Below, piece after piece: positions 1,833-13,570 of a stretch of DNA of 32,000 nucleotides (positions within the stretch are counted from its first letter, which is position 1; each line of letters begins with the position of its first letter). The translations under genes and the position numbers were made by a program. The notes beneath the pieces are model-generated. The model ran no database searches. It was not told the origin of the DNA and was given only the letters and a program-made list of their open reading frames with translations. This DNA is from Thermoproteus tenax Kra 1 (GTDB lineage: Archaea > Thermoproteota > Thermoprotei > Thermoproteales > Thermoproteaceae): positions 1,320,001 to 1,352,000 of the forward strand of contig NC_016070.1 of NCBI RefSeq assembly GCF_000253055.1, written 5' to 3'.

Positions 1833-2621
1833 ATGAACTACAGAGCCAAGAGACTTGAGGCGGCTCTGATAGGTCTTGCAGTGCCGGAGGAACTCATAGA
1901 CAGAGTGGCCGGCGAGATAAACAGAGACCCCATGGTCTCCCATAACTTCCAGAGAGACTGGAGGCCCTACAACGTCTGGTATGTGACCAAGGCTTCCTCC
2001 AAGGAGGAGCTCGAGGGAAAGGTAAAGACTCTCGCAGATAAGTGGGGGCTCGAATACGTCATATTGTACTCTCTCAAGACCTATAAGCTTGACGTCAGAT
2101 TTGATCTAAGGAGAGGCATATCGCGATCTAAGCTCAAGAGACTTCCGGAAGATCCGCCGCACGTTGATGCCCTGGGGATCCCAAGAGAGTTCTTCTCCAA
2201 AGTGAAGTCGATACCGCTCGTGCGCGAGCCGTTTAAAGGCGTTGCAGACGTGTTGGGCAAGAGCGTGGGCGAGACCTTAGACTTACTACTACAGTTGATA
2301 AAGTTGGGCGTGCTGAGGGACTTCCACGCAACTCTCGACGGAGAGAGGTTGGGGTTCCGAGAAAACGCCATGGTAGTTCTGAGGAGGCCTGAGTGCGACA
2401 GAGCCGCGGACTTGGATGAGTCGACGCACGTCGTCTTGAGGAACACAGTGCCGGGGAAGTGGGAATACCCGTGTTATTTTATGGTACACGCCGTCGACAG
2501 AAAAGTTATAGCCGAGTCTGTGGCCAGAAGTTTCAGAGAGGGCTACGACATGCTGTTCAGCGTCAGAGATCTACTGGGCGGGAGTGATATGGGCAAAAGA
2601 ATTGAGTCCGTAAGCGACTAG
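1833..2621 (+). CDS. Fused AsnC/Lrp-like siroheme decarboxylase (AhbA/AhbB, NirD/L-like); the N-terminal HTH is in another frame (apparent frameshift)
   Basis: Two tandem AhbA/B-like halves are present (...VSHNFQRDW..NVWYV... and ...IPLVREPFKGVADVLG...VVLRN...YFMVHA). The expected N-terminus MKVQYDFPLVDRPFEEIGQELGLDEDQVIQRLS is encoded from the ATG at 1693 in a different frame. That frame meets this one near 1789-1793. Confidence 0.7.
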   Translation: MNYRAKRLEAALIGLAVPEELIDRVAGEINRDPMVSHNFQRDWRPYNVWYVTKASSKEELEGKVKTLADKWGLEYVILYSLKTYKLDVRFDLRRGISRSKLKRLPEDPPHVDALGIPREFFSKVKSIPLVREPFKGVADVLGKSVGETLDLLLQLIKLGVLRDFHATLDGERLGFRENAMVVLRRPECDRAADLDESTHVVLRNTVPGKWEYPCYFMVHAVDRKVIAESVARSFREGYDMLFSVRDLLGGSDMGKRIESVSD

Positions 2622-3073
2622 GAGCCACTCTGAGGCGCCTCGCCTTGATAGCACCAGATCCCTCTCTCCTTCTGGACAAAGCCCTTCCTCCTCAACATAA
2701 CGCTGTTGAGGTTCTTGCCGTAGTACTTCCTCACTTCGGAGAAGGTGAGACATTTATCGGGCCTCTTCAGAGCTTGGTTTATCACTGCGTCCCAACCTCC
2801 CTCATATCCCTCTGCAACAAGCTCTGGTTTCAACTCCTTAACTAACTCGGGCATCTTCTCCGATAGCGTCTCGCTGACGGCCCTCCTCACTACATCGTAG
2901 AATCTCTTGTCGTTTATCAACTCGTTGACGGCCTCCCGCGCCACGTCTATCAATCTAATCTTGCACGGCTGCTCCAACAAAAGTCGTATAGCATCGTCGA
3001 ACGGCGCATCGGGCCTAGGCAAAAGCCTCCTCAGCCTTTCGACGAGGGATTGGTCCCTGATTTCAATATGCAT
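2618..3073 (-). CDS. Hypothetical protein with an N-terminal ribbon-helix-helix/antitoxin-like segment
   Basis: 151-aa ORF. The N-terminus MHIEIRDQSLVERLRRLLPRPDAPFDDAIRLLLEQ resembles small archaeal RHH/VapB-like domains. A TATA box (ttatatattc on the minus strand, 3091-3100) lies about 23 nt upstream of the ATG. Confidence 0.45.
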   Translation of the reverse strand: MHIEIRDQSLVERLRRLLPRPDAPFDDAIRLLLEQPCKIRLIDVAREAVNELINDKRFYDVVRRAVSETLSEKMPELVKELKPELVAEGYEGGWDAVINQALKRPDKCLTFSEVRKYYGKNLNSVMLRRKGFVQKERGIWCYQGEAPQSGS

Positions 3074-3108
3074 AGAGGCGCGTCCTCAACGAATATATAA
3101 CTTTTATA

Positions 3109-3660
3109 TCACTTAAAGACTTGTAGCTTTAGCCTCTTCGGCAGAACCTCCTTTGGTAGCTCGGCTCCAATCAACTCGATATTAACCGTCTGCTCAAACC
3201 ACGGAGTCGATCTCCCGAAGGCGCGGGGCATATAGTTCCTTATCTGAATCCCCTTGTGGGCCGCCGCATGGACTATTACCACTCTCTCTACGTCTAGTCC
3301 ATTGAACCTTGCGTTGTTCTCCAAATTCTGTAGAACCCTCAGATAGTTGTAGGCGACTTTAACGGGCCATTTGGCCACGGGCCATCCGCCCCAAGGCGTC
3401 GCGTGATGCGCTTGCTTCTTCGTGAATCGCCTAATAGGTATGGGTCTCTTGAGGTTTACTGTGTCTTGTAGCCAGGACTGGGCTTGTTTTATGGTCATAA
3501 ACTTTATGAATCTGCCGACCTCTACCGCCTTTTTCCACGACATTCTGAACTCGTTGCCGTAGGCTCTGGCTATTTGATCCTCGGCGATTCTCACTCCGAA
3601 CCTTCTGAGGACGAGCTCTACCACCTCCTCGTTGCTCATGCTGTACTGTAAGCGCGCCAC
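3109..3660 (-). CDS. rpl22: 50S ribosomal protein uL22
   Basis: ORF 3109..3678. The uL22 core is recognisable ([23 protein letters not shown]...[21 protein letters not shown]). The TATA at 3681-3687 abuts the annotated ATG, so the GTG at 3660 (MARLQYS..., the typical crenarchaeal L22 N-terminus) is the likely leaderless start. Confidence 0.9.
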
Positions 3661-3678
3661 GAAGCCCCCGCAATCCAT

Positions 3679-3689
3679 TATTTATAAGT
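3679..3689. promoter_or_regulatory. Shared bidirectional TATA box for uL22 (minus) and the UbiA gene (plus)
   Basis: tatttataag is centred about 24 nt from both the GTG at 3660 (minus) and the GTG at 3708 (plus). This spacing is typical of leaderless crenarchaeal promoters. Confidence 0.5.
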
Positions 3690-3707
3690 GTTAGCACGCA
3701 CAAGGCC

Positions 3708-4556
3708 GTGAAGAGCTATTGGGCGCTGATAAGGGGCGAGCACGGCGTTCTCACCGCCGTATCCTCTGTGGCCTCCTATCTGTTAGCGGGCGGCCGCTCA
3801 GCGCTCTATGCAGGTCTGATCGGGGGCAGCGCCTTTTTGGCCGAGGCAGCTCTATTCGCCCACAACGATCTGGCGAACCAGGCCGAGGACAGAGTCAATA
3901 GGCCAAACGCGCCCTTAGTGACAGGCAAGGTGAGCCAACGCGCTGCTAAGGTATTAGTCGTAAGCAGTGCAATGGCCGGACTGGCGATGGCATCGGCGCT
4001 ATCTGCGCCGGCCCTTTTGATATACATCGCTGCCTTGGCCCTAGGATTCTTTTATAATATTAAGGGCAAGAGAGTGCCGTTGTTGGGCAATCTGATAGTC
4101 GCTTTTCTAACCTCAATGGTGTATTTATACGGTATGGAGGCTGCGTATTCGCAAAATATCTATCTTCTCTTATTGTTTATTGCATCATTTTTAGCAAACA
4201 TTGGCCGTGAATTCGTCAAATCAGCGATAGACTATCACGGCGATCGAGCTGTCGGTATAAGGACCGTTGCCGCGATATTGGGACCTGGGAGGGCCGCCTC
4301 CTTGGGCGCCTATTTCACTCTGGCTTCTGCCTCGGTCGGGCTCTACCTATTTTACGTCCTCGTTAGGGCGGAACTATTAGTTCTAGCAGCGGGGGTGGCC
4401 ATCACCACAGTGCTCCTCTTATACTATTCTATTATCTGCCTAAGGGGATCGTGGAGTAAGTACCGGACAGGCACTCTGTTTGCGTTCGGAGTAACCCTTG
4501 TAACATTGTTGCTACAGGGCATCCTCACTGTTATGATCGGAAGCTTTACCCCTTAG
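3708..4556 (+). CDS. UbiA-family prenyltransferase, probably digeranylgeranylglyceryl phosphate synthase
   Basis: 282 aa and polytopic. Contains the Asp-rich motif HNDLANQAEDRVNRPNAPLVTG, characteristic of UbiA/DGGGP synthases. GTG start. Confidence 0.75.
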   Translation: MKSYWALIRGEHGVLTAVSSVASYLLAGGRSALYAGLIGGSAFLAEAALFAHNDLANQAEDRVNRPNAPLVTGKVSQRAAKVLVVSSAMAGLAMASALSAPALLIYIAALALGFFYNIKGKRVPLLGNLIVAFLTSMVYLYGMEAAYSQNIYLLLLFIASFLANIGREFVKSAIDYHGDRAVGIRTVAAILGPGRAASLGAYFTLASASVGLYLFYVLVRAELLVLAAGVAITTVLLLYYSIICLRGSWSKYRTGTLFAFGVTLVTLLLQGILTVMIGSFTP

Positions 4557-4583
4557 GTCTGAGATAGGCTCTGCGGGTTTATC

Positions 4584-4639
4584 TTCCACGGCAGGGCGAC
4601 GAAGAGAGAGTCTAATAGCGCGCTCCATACGGCAGATGG
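4584..4639. repeat. 56-nt copy (55/56 identical) of the core of the 7171-7460 RNA-like locus
   Basis: ttccacggcagGgcgacgaagagagagtctaatagcgcgctccatacggcagatgg matches 7224-7279 with a single g/a difference (4595 vs 7235). Same orientation, 2.6 kb apart. Confidence 0.9.
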
Positions 4640-4662
4640 CTCTCGATGATGGACATAGGATG

Positions 4663-4681
4663 GCCACAATTTTATTGTGGC
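4663..4681. promoter_or_regulatory. Perfect 8-3-8 palindrome overlapping the TATA region of the HAD gene
   Basis: GCCACAAT-TTT-ATTGTGGC. The AT-rich centre lies about 25 nt upstream of the ATG at 4697. Candidate operator or bidirectional promoter. Confidence 0.5.
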
Positions 4682-4696
4682 TAACGTTGTCGTGAT

Positions 4697-5392
4697 ATGA
4701 CTATAGCCTTAGTCGACCTCGATGGAACATTGATACCTCTGGAGGCTTGGGATCCCGTCTTCTACGAGCTGTCGTCTATAATTGCGTCTAGGGCCGGCGT
4801 TGAGCCTCAGGATGTGTGGGGGCTTGTTAAGGCATTACATTATCAGCTCATGAGGAGGTTCGACCCTAAGGCGTTCGATTGGCAGTACTTGTTCGAGTCT
4901 GTGGGAAGTAGCCTGGGCATATTCGATATTCCCAACATCGAGGATATTCTTTTGAAATACGTGGACAACTTCCCCGTGAACGAGGGAGCCTTTGAGCTTC
5001 TTAGAGATCTCAGATCTCTGGGACTTTCACCTGTTATAGCCACCAACGGTCTGTATAGATATCAGCATATTGTAGTGGAGAGGTTGGGGTTCTCTAAATA
5101 TGTAGATGGCGTCCGCACGTCTGATGCCTACGGTTGTACGAAGAGCTGTAGTAGATTCTTCGAGGGGGCCTCGCTGGTTATTGGAGATAACCCCATCTTC
5201 GACGTATATTTCCCGAAGAAGTTCGGCGTGGCCACTATATTTATCGGCGAGTGGAACAGAGCTGTGAGAAAATACAGCGAACTACTGGGGATAGATGCGG
5301 GCATCGTTAGGCCCGACTACATCGCTGCAGACCTTATTGAGGCCCGCGCCGTCGTCGCGCGGTTCAAGGCCTGGGAGAGGTCGGCCCCATGA
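4697..5392 (+). CDS. HAD-superfamily hydrolase
   Basis: The N-terminal motif I is present (MTIALVDLDGTLIP, DxDGT), and a late GDN motif is present (VIGDNPIFDV). Confidence 0.75.
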   Translation: MTIALVDLDGTLIPLEAWDPVFYELSSIIASRAGVEPQDVWGLVKALHYQLMRRFDPKAFDWQYLFESVGSSLGIFDIPNIEDILLKYVDNFPVNEGAFELLRDLRSLGLSPVIATNGLYRYQHIVVERLGFSKYVDGVRTSDAYGCTKSCSRFFEGASLVIGDNPIFDVYFPKKFGVATIFIGEWNRAVRKYSELLGIDAGIVRPDYIAADLIEARAVVARFKAWERSAP

Positions 5393-6171
5393 TTCTGTTA
5401 AATTTGACGATCCCACCGCTTCTGATCATATACTTGGGGGCCTCCGTGCTCTCCAATTTGTCGCTCCCTGCTCCCCCTATGTCGCAAGTGGCCGCCTTCT
5501 GGCTGAACGGAACGCCCATACCCTCTTGGGTCGTCGGCAACAGATTGTACGTCCTACAGCTGGGCCAACCGGCCTACGTTGAGTACGTGCCCCAATATTA
5601 CAACTCGACGGGGCTCTACGAGTTAGCTCTCAACGCAACGGCTGGAGCAGTAATAATGGCGCCGCCGGGAATCATAGTCGACGTTGAACCTGAGAACTAT
5701 TCCGTGATCGCTATAAATAGATCCGGCCTTTTTATATACATTAAGGCGCCTCGCGTCAAGCTGAATTTTTCTCTAATAGCGATCGTTACTACTTCGACGA
5801 CCACCAAGGGCTCCGTCGTAGCGCCTCCTCCTACGACCTCCCAACAGAGCGTTACGTCGAGCACCACAAGGGGAGGCAACGCGGCCTCGTTAATACCCTA
5901 TGCGGTCGGCTTAGTCGTTGTGGCGGCCATCTTGTCTCTTCTTCTGCTCAGAAGGCGCAGAGACTGCGTAGGACTGGGAGAAACCGATCTGAAGATTCTG
6001 AGGGCTCTACAGGATGGAGGCGGACGCGTTAAAAGGTCAGAGCTTGGGCAAAGATTGGGGCTTCCTGCATCGACGCTCCACAAACATCTCCACAAGCTCT
6101 CCAGGATGGGCTACGTACGTTTAGTTACAGAGCAAGATGGACAAAGGGTGGAGTTAGTCAAGAAATGTTGA
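5389..6171 (+). CDS. Membrane-anchored winged-HTH protein (extracytoplasmic N-terminal domain, Ser/Thr-rich linker, one TM helix, cytoplasmic MarR/TrmB-like wHTH)
   Basis: N-terminal hydrophobic segment with 8 N-x-S/T sequons. The linker is TTSTTTKGSVVAPPPTTSQQSVTSSTT and the TM helix is LIPYAVGLVVVAAILSLLLL followed by RRRRD. The C-terminus is LGETDLKILRALQDGGGRVKRSELGQRLGLPASTLHKHLHKLSRMGYV. ATGA overlap with the HAD gene. Confidence 0.65.
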   Translation: MILLNLTIPPLLIIYLGASVLSNLSLPAPPMSQVAAFWLNGTPIPSWVVGNRLYVLQLGQPAYVEYVPQYYNSTGLYELALNATAGAVIMAPPGIIVDVEPENYSVIAINRSGLFIYIKAPRVKLNFSLIAIVTTSTTTKGSVVAPPPTTSQQSVTSSTTRGGNAASLIPYAVGLVVVAAILSLLLLRRRRDCVGLGETDLKILRALQDGGGRVKRSELGQRLGLPASTLHKHLHKLSRMGYVRLVTEQDGQRVELVKKC

Positions 6172-6262
6172 TTCAGACGGCTGAAAAAAGCTCATCCTCG
6201 CAGCTCAGCGGATTCATCACCTGTAGAGTGTTCTATTGAAGTTATTTTATCTATAGCTTATA

Positions 6263-6814
6263 TTGCCTAACATCCGCTATAGTCAGGTGACCTTCGCCAA
6301 ACCCTGCCTGATGCTCTTCTCGTGCCCAGGGGACGGGGGAGACACGCTGGTGCTCCACAGAGGCAGAGCGCTCCAGGCCTCCAAGGCGGACCCTCTGGTC
6401 AAGCTGTACGGGGCGTTGGACACGGCGGTCGCCTACGCCCACAAGGCCGCAGGCCTCCTCCCCCGCCCGCAGGCCAGAGTCATGAGGCTCCTCGCCTTCT
6501 CTATGACGGAGCTCGGCTTCTACGTGGCCACGGGCAGAGCGCTCCATCTGGACAACGCCGTGGAGCTCTACAGGAGGGCCCTCAAGCTCGCCTACTCGGC
6601 CAGCGGCGATCCCCCGCGCAGCTGGATAGCTTGCTCCTCGCCCGAGTGCTCGGCCGTGGACGAGGCGAGGGTGTGGGCGAGGTGGGCGGAGAGGAGGGCT
6701 GTGGCGCTCGGGGAGGCCGAGGCGGCGAGGCTTCTGAACCAGCTCTCCAACCTGATGTTCGAGGTCATGGCCACCCTCCCGCACATAGAGTACAGATCGA
6801 GGCCTCTGAGGTGA
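6263..6814 (+). CDS. ATP:cob(I)alamin adenosyltransferase, PduO type
   Basis: GDGGDTLVLHRGRALQASKADPLVKLYGALDTAVAYA matches the PduO/MMAB N-terminal pattern (GD.G.T.L..G....K.D.R..A.G..DE). The true start may be Met17 (6311). The gene is about two-thirds G+C, so all frames are open here. Confidence 0.75.
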   Translation: MPNIRYSQVTFAKPCLMLFSCPGDGGDTLVLHRGRALQASKADPLVKLYGALDTAVAYAHKAAGLLPRPQARVMRLLAFSMTELGFYVATGRALHLDNAVELYRRALKLAYSASGDPPRSWIACSSPECSAVDEARVWARWAERRAVALGEAEAARLLNQLSNLMFEVMATLPHIEYRSRPLR

Positions 6815-6927
6815 TCGATTTCGACGTTAAAGCGGTGTGATGCCGGGGTAACCCGCCACTCTCATCCGCCCCACACGGGGGTGTCGGTGTGGCGTCTCTA
6901 TCTACTTGCTTGTTTAAAAGCTTTTGT

Positions 6928-7137
6928 TCAAAACTCCACTATGTTTTTGCCCTTCTCTTTCAATTCGGCGAGTATTGCGTCGGCCTTGCTGATGGGTAGC
7001 CTTATGGTATAGAGATATCCAGAGAGGCGCGCCTTGAGTTTGGCCACGTTCTCCTCTGGAAACCTCTTTACCCTTATCTCCTCCGCCTTTTCGGCATACT
7101 TCCTCCATATTTCTACCAAGAACACCTCCTTAGGCAT
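6928..7137 (-). CDS. rpl38e: 50S ribosomal protein eL38
   Basis: 69 aa. ...KARLSGYLYTIRLPISKADAILAELK aligns with eukaryotic RPL38 ([26 protein letters not shown]). The TATA aaataataaaaag lies about 27 nt upstream of the ATG. Confidence 0.85.
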   Translation of the reverse strand: MPKEVFLVEIWRKYAEKAEEIRVKRFPEENVAKLKARLSGYLYTIRLPISKADAILAELKEKGKNIVEF

Positions 7138-7170
7138 GCCCGAGGATAAGTTAAGACTTTTTATTATTTA

Positions 7171-7460
7171 CGACTGAAGGTCCCGCCATTCAAGTCGGGG
7201 GTGGATTTAAGCTTGCCACATTTTTCCACGGCAGAGCGACGAAGAGAGAGTCTAATAGCGCGCTCCATACGGCAGATGGTCCCCGCCGCGATGCCCGCCC
7301 CAACCGCGGCCTCCCTCGTTAGGGCCGAGTGCCGCCCGGCCCCATGCCCGATAAGCCCGCGCCGGAGGTATCTTGGATGCCGATGAAGGCATGGGCGAGG
7401 AGAAACCCCGCCCTTTAGGGCGGGGAGGCGGAGCGCGGCCATGTGCATATAGGGCGGCAC
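7171..7460 (-). ncRNA. GC-rich structured RNA-like locus A (unknown family; paralog of 31491-31821)
   Basis: About 290 nt at roughly two-thirds G+C between two AT-rich promoters. It contains several perfect 8-9 bp helices (see findings). A TATA-like GATATAGG lies 25-32 nt upstream of 7460 on the minus strand. The only ORF is an implausible Arg/Gly/Pro-rich 111-aa frame. The strand is inferred from G-U pairs in the paralogous hairpin. Confidence 0.5.
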
Positions 7461-7497
7461 GCAAAATATTTTTAAATGGCCTATATCGCGTTGGGTC

Positions 7498-7827
7498 ATG
7501 GAATACGTCTATGCGGCTCTGTTACTACACTATGCAAAACAGGAGATAAGCGAGGAGAATCTGACTAAGGTCCTCCAAGCAGCTGGGCTTCAGCCAGATG
7601 AGGTTAGAATCAAGACGCTAGTCGCCGCCTTGAAGGAGGTTAACATCGATGAGGCCGTAAAAAGCGCCGCCTTCGCTCCAGTTGCAGCCGCCCCAGCTGC
7701 GGGCGCTCCAGCCCAAGCTCAAGCAGCCGGCCAACAACAAGCTGCTGGAGGCGAAAAGAAAGAGGAAGAGGAGAAAAAGGGTCCCAGCGAGGAGGAGATC
7801 GCTGGATCCCTCGCCGCACTGTTCTAA
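7498..7827 (+). CDS. rpl12: Ribosomal stalk protein P1 (aP1/L12e)
   Basis: [26 protein letters not shown]... is followed by an Ala/Pro/Gln hinge and an acidic tail ending [12 protein letters not shown]. The TATA tttttaaat lies about 25 nt upstream. Confidence 0.9.
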
Positions 7828-7848
7828 AATACAGACTCTTTTCTATTT

Positions 7849-8589
7849 TCACTTGGATTTAGTCTCCGGAGGACTCTGTACGACAACCATTTTAGATAAA
7901 GTTTTATGAACTTCTTCGATATCTTTATAGTATATTCTATATAGTTGGTTACCTATTTTTAATTCTATAAATTTTCTTTCTGGAATATATTTGTATTCCT
8001 GCACATGGATAGGGGCCTTAAGACCTGTGTTCTTGTTTATCACAATGCCTGTATCGTATATTTTGACATCGGTCGCTATAATCGGAAATTGTATTGGCCT
8101 GAAGGTAAAATAGTACAGGGGCGAGAAGATCGCTGTAAAGGCCGCAAAGAGCGCCACATATCCAAAATACGTAGCCAGGAAGCGGCCAAGGCTCTGCTCC
8201 AGACTGGCGCTGACCGCCGGCACAATCGTAGACTGAAAAGCGGGAAAAAGCCATATTCCTATCAGCATGATTGGAAACGCCATAAAGTATATCATAAATA
8301 CTCTATTTAGTTTACGCATTTCTTCTTGAAATTCTCTATCTTTTTCTAAAGCTTTATTTGTATCTTTTTCATTTATTTCAAAAAGTAACTTGCCCTTTAC
8401 TATCTCTCTTGCTTGAAGAGATCCCCTTCTATAGGCCCTTATTCCCAAGGCTGTAGTTATCGCGAACACTGATCCTATGTAGAGAAGTCCCACGAGCCAG
8501 AGATACTGCGGGCCCAACACGGCCATAACTGCGGCATAGCCGAATATTGTGCCCACAGTAATTAGAAGTCTAAGGGCCAGCTGATTCAT
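7849..8589 (-). CDS. Hypothetical integral membrane protein
   Basis: 246 aa with about 4 hydrophobic helices, a charged loop (KDTNKALEKDREFQEEMRK) and a soluble C-terminal domain. A TATA lies about 28 nt upstream. Confidence 0.5.
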   Translation of the reverse strand: MNQLALRLLITVGTIFGYAAVMAVLGPQYLWLVGLLYIGSVFAITTALGIRAYRRGSLQAREIVKGKLLFEINEKDTNKALEKDREFQEEMRKLNRVFMIYFMAFPIMLIGIWLFPAFQSTIVPAVSASLEQSLGRFLATYFGYVALFAAFTAIFSPLYYFTFRPIQFPIIATDVKIYDTGIVINKNTGLKAPIHVQEYKYIPERKFIELKIGNQLYRIYYKDIEEVHKTLSKMVVVQSPPETKSK

Positions 8590-12723: not shown

Positions 12724-13311
12724 ATGATCGACCTTCGCTACCTTAAGCTTCTGACGTTCTTAGCTATGAGCCAGGCGCTGGCAGGAAGGCGTTATATCTC
12801 ATCTAAATTGGGGATGGGGGAGGGCGTCGTCAGAGGGCTCATAGAGTTGGGTAGAGGTCTGGGGCACATCTCAGTAAATAGAGCGGGCGCGAAGATAACA
12901 GACAATGGAATACGATATTTAGCCGAAGTGATCTCGCTGTGTAGACTGAAGCCTCTGGCCTACACTAACAAATTCGCTGAAAAACTGTGCGGAAGAGTGT
13001 GCGTTGCATTCTCTCTTGGTATAAAGATAGACAATATAGTAAAGTTTAGGGATAGCGTAGTCCGTAGAGGCAGTTGCGGCATTATAATCGCCCAATTGAG
13101 AGATAACAACATATACATCCCGCTTGCAGAAATGCGGCTTGAGGATCTCGATCCAGAGATGGCCGGCTCAATTAAGGGGCTCCTATCAAGGGAGGATTTC
13201 CTTATAATCTCGTGTGGCGATAACTTCGGACAAGCCCTGGCCCCTCTCGAGGTGGTCTGCGAAATGATGATAGAACCCGGCCGATCCGATGAAGTACGGC
13301 ATCCTATCTGA
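12724..13311 (+). CDS. Hypothetical wHTH-domain protein with an uncharacterised C-terminal domain
   Basis: 195 aa. The N-terminal segment LKLLTFLAMSQALAGRRYISSKLGMGEGVVRGLIELGRGLGHI is wHTH-like. The C-terminal domain is not recognised. Confidence 0.5.
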   Translation: MIDLRYLKLLTFLAMSQALAGRRYISSKLGMGEGVVRGLIELGRGLGHISVNRAGAKITDNGIRYLAEVISLCRLKPLAYTNKFAEKLCGRVCVAFSLGIKIDNIVKFRDSVVRRGSCGIIIAQLRDNNIYIPLAEMRLEDLDPEMAGSIKGLLSREDFLIISCGDNFGQALAPLEVVCEMMIEPGRSDEVRHPI

Positions 13312-13315
13312 TTTC
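13261..13315 (+). ncRNA. C/D box sRNA candidate overlapping the 3' end and stop codon of the 12724-13311 gene
   Basis: The C box AUGAUGA (13264-13270) is perfect. It is followed by a 12-nt guide UAGAACCCGGCC and a degenerate D' GAUC (13283-13286). A degenerate C' AUGAAGU (13289-13295) is followed by a 12-nt guide ACGGCAUCCUAU and a perfect D box CUGA (13308-13311). The flanks GAA/UUU can pair. Box-to-box length is 48 nt. Confidence 0.6.
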
Positions 13316-13570
13316 TCCTCGCGCCCAGCTCCAGCGTTCCTGCCGCGAGACTCTTGAGTTAGCCTACTGCGAGGGGCGCGAGAGCTGTCGCGAGGCAGAG
13401 GGAGTCCGAGGACAAGTCGGTAGATGCTGTAAGGGCTCGCTCACCGAGAATGAGCATAGGCGGTCAGATAGGGCGCCATAAGAGGCCTCATTGAAAACAA
13501 CAATCATCAATATAGATCTACATATATAGGCTAAGATAACAGATTTCAATGTTCTTAGAGCATATCCACA

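Follow-up and report, generated by a model that had tools for sequence, protein, structure and literature searches.

The last codons of a small archaeal gene raise the question of whether the end of an open reading frame (ORF) can also be a C/D box small RNA (sRNA), and of which RNAs the guides of such an sRNA would address. The DNA analysed here, referred to as the window, is a stretch of 32,000 nucleotides (G000:C1:1320001-1352000) from the complete genome (1,841,542 bp) of Thermoproteus tenax Kra 1. An earlier note on it proposed a dual-guide archaeal C/D sRNA overlapping a gene 3' end, and the boxes, the transcript and the conservation described below bear this proposal out. It is practically certain that the element at 13264-13311 (+) is a real, expressed and already known C/D box sRNA. 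The full reading favoured here is held with good confidence: the RNA is Tte sR132, a member of the Thermoproteus/Pyrobaculum sR60 family, and its guides are most likely aimed at tRNAs, not rRNA. The RNA itself being known, the sole addition is a likely pair of tRNA targets, obtained by prediction only.

The element reads GAA-AUGAUGA-UAGAACCCGG-CCGA-UCCG-AUGAAGU-ACGGCAUCCUAU-CUGA-UUUC over 13261-13315 (+), with a span of 48 nt from the C box to the D box (Table 1). Both terminal boxes are perfect, as had been claimed, with AUGAUGA seen at 13264-13270 and CUGA at 13308-13311; the ORF 12724-13311 does end with its TGA stop inside the D box. The arrangement is that of a C/D sRNA, with a RUGAUGA C box near the 5' end, a CUGA D box near the 3' end, and internal D'/C' boxes that keep the GA dinucleotides needed for a K-loop. 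The guides (10 nt for D' and 12 nt for D) fit the usual size of about 10-12 nt in a total of about 50-60 nt. The earlier description of the interior stands in part. Its C' box AUGAAGU was correct, but its D' box had been placed at GAUC (13283-13286), and the homologues keep CCGA at 13281-13284; across 24 homologues this box appears as CCGA, CGGA, CUGA, AGGA, CAGA or UGGA (NNGA). Since the D' box is CCGA and not GAUC, only one of the two guides described as 12 nt long, the D guide, has that length, and the D' guide measures 10 nt in the homologue alignment. For the same reason the predicted modified base shifts from G51, the fifth G of the earlier proposal, to G53 or, with an alternative register, to G52. 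The flanks GAA/UUUC are not conserved among the homologues.

Table 1. Features of the sR132 locus in window coordinates
Feature	Position	Strand	Basis
Host gene, 195 aa, wHTH (CggR_N-like) + DUF4443 domain; last 16 codons = sRNA	12724..13311	+	ORF, Pfam
Tte sR132, published extent 63 nt	13258..13320	+	PMC4644070 Additional file 1; position 1333258 = window 13258
5' flank GAA, complementary to 3' flank UUUC at 13312-13315 (short terminal stem)	13261..13263	+	Stem present in MFE fold
C box AUGAUGA, also Met-Met codons of host gene	13264..13270	+	UGAUGA invariant in 24 homologues
D' guide UAGAACCCGG, complementary to tRNA T-arm C49-C56 (CCGGGUUC)	13271..13280	+	Core A.CC.G conserved
D' box CCGA (degenerate CUGA)	13281..13284	+	NNGA with invariant GA in alignment of 24 homologues
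C' box AUGAAGU (degenerate)	13289..13295	+	UGA invariant among homologues
D guide ACGGCAUCCUAU, complementary to U20a-C28 of tRNA-Val	13296..13307	+	CAUCCUA invariant in 24 homologues
D box CUGA; its UGA = host-gene stop codon	13308..13311	+	Invariant among homologues

At gathering thresholds, Rfam gives no match at the sRNA locus. A permissive covariance-model scan of the sRNA strand, a check that had been proposed for the candidate, returned archaeal C/D families only, with sub-threshold scores, the best being sR18 (23 bits, E 0.0045). Membership of Rfam sR18 (RF01141, Sulfolobus) was considered and set aside, as 23 bits lies under the gathering threshold of 45 bits and all matches to these generic archaeal C/D families are sub-threshold. 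Sac sR18 likewise bears a CAGAACCCCGG D' guide; the D guide of sR132 is unrelated to that of Rfam sR18. The minimum free energy (MFE) fold of the sRNA is no more stable than those of shuffled sequences (z 0.13), which is normal for kink-turn RNAs, and the value is uninformative.

Expression was assessed from contigs of four size-fractionated ncRNA-seq runs belonging to one 2015 study. The contig depth is 2,400-8,000 over 13260-13313, 22-54 over the gene body and 0 over 13340-13560; the sRNA contigs are about 100 times deeper than the host gene body, as is characteristic of a discrete small RNA. The contigs span 13260-13308/13313, and several end at 13308-13313 and run on into A-tracts, in keeping with libraries tailed in vitro. 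They support a mature species of about 13260-13312, its exact ends and strand lying beyond the contig data. The same RNA had been published by Dennis, Tripp, Randau et al. 2015 (BMC Genomics 16:632; PMC4644070, Additional file 1) as TtesR132, at genome position 1333258 on the plus strand, with a length of 63 nt and a coverage of 3842, and its sequence is identical to window 13258-13320. Thus, the small transcript that the earlier note had suggested looking for is present in the contigs as well as in published coverage.

A homologue, Pca sR60, is entered in the same additional file. Its published sequence equals the homologous locus L016 of the present survey, and the family is thus the one that Lui et al. 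2018 (NAR 46:5678; PMC6009581) number sR60. In the target sheet of PMC4644070, both Tte sR32 (= sR132) and Pca sR60 are marked 'NP/NP', that is, without an rRNA target; only rRNA targets were predicted in that study, and tRNA complementarities are given as 'data not compiled'. A search of published main texts for the guide strings returned unrelated primer matches only. The tRNA targets predicted below for sR132/sR60 may already be given in the supplement to Lui et al. 2018.

For the survey of conservation, the host protein served as query against 29 family genomes, and the DNA at the end of every match was examined. Of 25 orthologous loci from two genera, 24 have the same C/D unit at the gene end or immediately behind it, and in the 25th (genome G008) it is 2.4 kb away. 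The unit consists of RUGAUGA, a guide whose core is AACCCG, then boxes of the form NNGA and xUGAxxx, and finally CGGCAUCCUAU and CUGA. In its strict form this pattern is single-copy in 24 of the 29 family genomes (7 of 8 in one genus and 16 of 18 in the other); 91 other genomes of the class lack it, and a control pattern gave zero matches. The host protein shares 58-68% identity with that of T. tenax within the genus and 33-40% in the second genus. Within the genus, the sRNA is 76-83% identical to that of T. tenax, compared with 55-74% for the 72 coding nt upstream and 15-35% for the 60 nt downstream. Hence, in the comparison with coding sequence that had been recommended, boxes and guides are kept well beyond what the coding sequence shows. 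The columns invariant in 24 homologues are UGAUGA, the GA of D', the UGA of C', CAUCCUA and CUGA. The D' guide has 10 nt in T. tenax and 11 nt in most relatives, and three Pyrobaculum homologues have diverged D guides (UGUCAUCCUAG, GGUCAUCCUAG) with weaker tRNA pairing.

Pca sR60 and sR132 have three things in common on which assignment to the sR60 family rests: D guide, D' core and neighbouring gene. More generally, the Pyrobaculum family resembles sR132 in box layout, D guide (GGCAUCCUAU-CUGA), D' core (AGAACCCG) and wHTH/DUF4443 neighbour. However, the Pyrobaculum copies are intergenic or barely overlapping, with a TATA box at about -27 and an 11-nt D' guide, whereas sR132 of T. tenax lies wholly inside the ORF end, with a 10-nt D' guide and no TATA box. 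A TATA-like hexamer precedes the C box by 24-31 nt in nearly all Pyrobaculum homologues; at -24 to -31 there is none among the Thermoproteus homologues, which overlap the ORF. Because sR132 is confined to the final 16 codons and lacks its own TATA box, it is probably cut from the mRNA 3' end. In T. tenax, it would be co-transcribed with the wHTH/DUF4443 mRNA and excised from its 3' end. Both sense overlap with gene 3' ends and stop codons provided by a box are categories described in Lui et al. 2018 (PMC6009581), in line with the earlier remark that Pyrobaculum sRNAs overlapping gene 3' ends are known. The family is a clear example of an sRNA that switches between two arrangements, with its own promoter in Pyrobaculum and embedded in an mRNA 3' end in Thermoproteus.

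The overlap has also left its mark on the protein. In Pfam, the host protein matches DUF4443 (E 1e-08, above the cut-off) and CggR_N (E 1e-06, 28.8 bits, just under the 30-bit cut-off). In every Thermoproteus orthologue, the C box supplies the codons of the final conserved residues (V/M-M/K/I, following ...APL[D/E]VVC). The stop codon falls within the sRNA at nt 10 in five Thermoproteus species, at nt 28 in one and at nt 46 (the D box) in T. tenax, where the 13-residue C-terminal tail IEPGRSDEVRHPI is species-specific. As the position of the stop codon differs between species, this tail is best regarded as species-specific read-through of the sRNA and not as a conserved part of the protein. 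In Thermoproteus, the sRNA sequence thereby dictates the C-terminal tail of the host protein. The drift of the stop position is seen at window 13159-13311 and at loci L004-L008 and L027, where drift of the D' guide sets the tail.

The guides of sR132 find their best partners among tRNAs. In a C/D sRNP, fibrillarin is placed on the target nucleotide that pairs with the fifth nucleotide of the guide, counted upstream from the D or D' box (N+5). By analogy with the established C/D family, L7Ae, Nop5 and fibrillarin would be expected on the C/D and C'/D' kink-turn motifs of sR132. The D guide forms 9 contiguous Watson-Crick bp with UAGGAUGCC (U20a-C28) of three tRNA-Val genes, with G23 as the N+5 partner; from the last part of the D-loop this stretch runs through the D-stem 3' strand and G26 into the first two anticodon-stem pairs. 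Its carriers are tRNA-Val(CAC), tRNA-Val(GAC) and a third gene called Thr(tgt) by aragorn, which is probably tRNA-Val(UAC) with a misplaced intron call, since its body is identical to the two tRNA-Val genes. The Thr(tgt) call lies at G000:C1:725181-725282 (-) and contains an intron. Other D-guide pairings in T. tenax are those with tRNA-Ala(GGC) (8 bp) and one tRNA-Pro (8 bp plus a G:U pair). The D' guide forms 8 contiguous Watson-Crick bp with C49-C56 (CCGGGUUC) in 27 of 44 tRNAs (the CCGGG class, tRNA-Val included), such per-class counts being approximate as aragorn mis-types some intron-containing tRNAs. The resemblance of this guide's target to a tRNA T-arm, already pointed out from the sequence, is therefore genuine. 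The N+5 partner of the D' guide is G53 with the CCGA D' box and G52 in the register of five Thermoproteus relatives.

Taken singly, these pairings are modest. Of shuffled guides 1.9% attain a 9-bp match to tRNA, and of random genomic guides 4.3%; an 8-bp match is attained by 8-11%, so that each match alone is only suggestive in a single genome. Short pairings of 8-9 bp, each marginally better than chance in one genome, indeed speak against tRNAs as targets, as do the change of the best D-guide tRNA from one genus to the other and the shift of the D'-guide N+5 position between G53 and G52 among species whose 10- or 11-nt guides have different registers. In Lui et al. 2018 (PMC6009581), a target requires at least 9 contiguous Watson-Crick bp around N+5, and a dual guide requires both sites within 100 nt, at most 1 mismatch and a score of at least 32. 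With both guides on one tRNA-Val, the hand-counted score is 18 + 16 = 34 against the required 32, which passes the dual-guide rule; on this tRNA the D' guide forms 8 bp, a mismatch and then 1 bp. Four families are named as dual tRNA guides in that paper, and sR60 is not among them. The Pyrobaculum D guide forms 9-10 Watson-Crick bp plus a G:U pair with tRNA-Pro(GGG)/(CGG) (GUAGGAUGCCG) and 8 bp with tRNA-Ala. In that genus tRNA-Val has a mismatch to the D guide, and the best D-guide tRNA is Pro or Ala instead of Val as in T. tenax, which suggests that the conserved partner is a D-arm sequence class rather than one tRNA species. In the D' core, substitutions facing U54 are A-to-G only, so that a wobble pair is retained.

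The identity of the element has to be weighed against other explanations. C-like and D-like motifs could simply co-occur by chance in coding sequence, and chance alone should give a genome about 14 copies of a bare C...D motif. The genome has 46 matches to RTGATGA-N34-44-CTGA, compared with 9-18 in mononucleotide shuffles, and this bare motif is thus weak evidence alone. With internal NNGA and NUGA added at the right spacing, the four-box arrangement occurs 22 times in the genome and 0 times in five shuffles. Expression, conservation, the internal boxes and prior publication contradict chance, which is left with a vanishingly small probability. Alternatively, the element might act mainly in cis at the mRNA 3' end, as a kink-turn bound by L7Ae through which the wHTH/DUF4443 mRNA is stabilised or regulated, with the small RNA as a stable decay product. 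The sense overlap of the Thermoproteus copy with the ORF end, its lack of a promoter of its own, a contig that bridges the host gene body and the 5' part of the sRNA, and the synteny with the host gene held across two genera all speak for such a role. However, the Pyrobaculum copy has its own TATA box and stands as far as about 100 nt from the gene (2.4 kb in one genome), and it is the guides, not the boxes alone, that are conserved. The drift of the stop position inside the sRNA (nt 10, 28 or 46) further implies that the protein adapts to the sRNA and not the reverse. A chiefly cis-acting element is therefore very improbable.

A more serious alternative accepts a real C/D sRNA and regards its guides as orphan for methylation or as acting on another RNA, possibly in a chaperone or scaffold role. 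The search for complementary targets in rRNA and tRNA, which had been suggested along with the candidate, succeeded for tRNA (27 tRNAs, and 9 bp with tRNA-Val) and failed for rRNA, and the second guide has no perfect target. Neither guide has a site with at least 9 contiguous bp in the organism's own 16S and 23S rRNA, in agreement with the published 'NP/NP' entries for Tte sR132 and Pca sR60 that this alternative can also claim. The best rRNA site, at 23S position 580, matches the D guide at 10 of 12 positions with 8 contiguous bp; falling under the 9-bp criterion, it was rejected as a main target. The weak 23S site AGGAUGCC at 582-589, with G584 at N+5, would be one candidate for another RNA. 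The shortness of the tRNA matches fits orphan guides, as do two figures in Lui et al. 2018 (PMC6009581), where 28% of Pyrobaculum guides are orphan and 61% of guides overlapping 3' ends in sense have no predicted target. On the other hand, CAUCCUA-CUGA and the AACCCG core are kept across two genera, including the intergenic Pyrobaculum copies, and invariance of guide sequences free of coding constraint argues for a conserved pairing partner. Moreover, both guides fit one and the same tRNA. Orphan guides, or guides to another RNA, are accordingly judged unlikely, though far from negligible. A perfect 11-nt target of the D guide (AUAGGAUGCCG) was also sought in the 29 family genomes and discarded, as nearly all matches are the antisense of the sRNA gene itself, and the others are a few scattered singles that are not conserved between genomes. 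In T. tenax, isolated D-guide matches occur at 288078 (-) and, near-perfect, at 659449 (+), the latter not being a tRNA by aragorn.

Returning to tRNAs as the targets of sR132, the complementarities make this reading somewhat more probable than its negation. The D guide would lie on the D-stem 3' strand, G26 and the anticodon-stem start of tRNA-Val and direct a predicted Gm23. The D' guide would lie on the T-stem 5' strand and T-loop of the 27 CCGGG-class tRNAs and direct a predicted Gm53, or Gm52. These exact methylated positions (Gm23; Gm53 or Gm52) are rather doubtful predictions, and we know of no report of Gm23 or Gm53 in archaeal tRNA. As both target stretches are base-paired in folded tRNA, the sRNP would need a tRNA that is still nascent or is unfolded. 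Combining these elements, sR132/sR60 may tentatively be viewed as a dedicated dual tRNA guide that holds one pre-tRNA (Val in T. tenax, Pro in Pyrobaculum) at two places at once, the D-arm/anticodon-stem junction and the T-arm. It would methylate G23 and G52/53, or serve mainly as a high-temperature folding chaperone, and together with sR142 and sR145 it would cover all tRNA T-arms. This joint proposal is unlikely to hold in full. If it were true, ribose methyls would occur at stem positions (G23, G52/53) that are not known to be modified. Additionally, sR132, sR142 (C56) and sR145 (the GUGGG-class T-arm) would form a T-arm sRNA set in a lineage that lost Trm56.

The T-arm is a target of other guides as well. 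No match to PF01994 (Trm56) was found in the T. tenax genome, which is rated 100% complete; all four archaeal control genomes match. Pyrobaculum likewise has no Trm56 and relies on a C/D sRNP for Cm56 (Renalier et al. 2005, as cited in PMC7912444). Lacking a Trm56 gene, T. tenax probably makes Cm56 by an sRNP as well, like P. aerophilum. For this reason sR132 was considered as the Cm56 guide and rejected, since its N+5 partner is G53/G52 and not C56; the proper guide is on Tte sR142 (G000:C1 about 1505857, minus strand). In that RNA, the counterpart of Pca sR35, the guide GGGAUUUGAACG-CAGA puts tRNA C56 at N+5. Like sR132, Pae/Pca sR35 and Tte sR142 carry C/D guides that pair with the conserved T-arm of many tRNAs. 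They differ in register, as sR35/sR142 pair with positions 53-65 and have C56 at N+5 (GGGAUUUGAACG plus box), whereas sR132 pairs with 49-56 and has G53/G52 at N+5. A precedent for a T-stem guide serving many tRNAs is the D guide of Pae sR64, for which Lui et al. 2018 (PMC6009581) give a predicted Gm51 in the T-stem of sixteen tRNA families; as described there, it belongs to another family, is a D rather than a D' guide and has another predicted position.

Furthermore, Tte sR145 (G000:C1 about 1584601, minus strand) has a D' region, GAGUUGAACCCACG, that is complementary to the T-arm GUGGGUUCAA of 14 tRNAs, which is the class unmatched by sR132. This suggests that T-arm-directed guides form a set in T. 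tenax, as a lead and not a result. Guides with the same AGAACCC(C)GG string are found in unrelated archaea, in M. kandleri sR1 and sR46 and in S. acidocaldarius sR18 (PMC4644070 Additional file 1), and in that file Mka sR46 likewise has no rRNA target. T-arm-complementary guides may be widespread among archaea.

As a discovery, sR132 carries little weight, being catalogued and verified by RNA-seq, and sense overlap with gene 3' ends had been described in Pyrobaculum. The case nevertheless illustrates that true C/D sRNAs can be recognised from sequence alone, and it supplies a modest lead in that a published 'no target' sRNA now has a plausible dual tRNA target. The window holds further small RNA loci. 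A second published C/D sRNA, TtesR131 (coverage 38827, PMC4644070), lies at window 6164-6226 (-) with the motif match at 6203-6220; its strand is given as 'pos' in the PMC4644070 table, yet its sequence matches the window minus strand. The only above-threshold Rfam match in the window is the Pyrobaculum H/ACA-like sRNA PyrR205, at window 6838-6896 (-), with 42.8 bits and E 4e-06.
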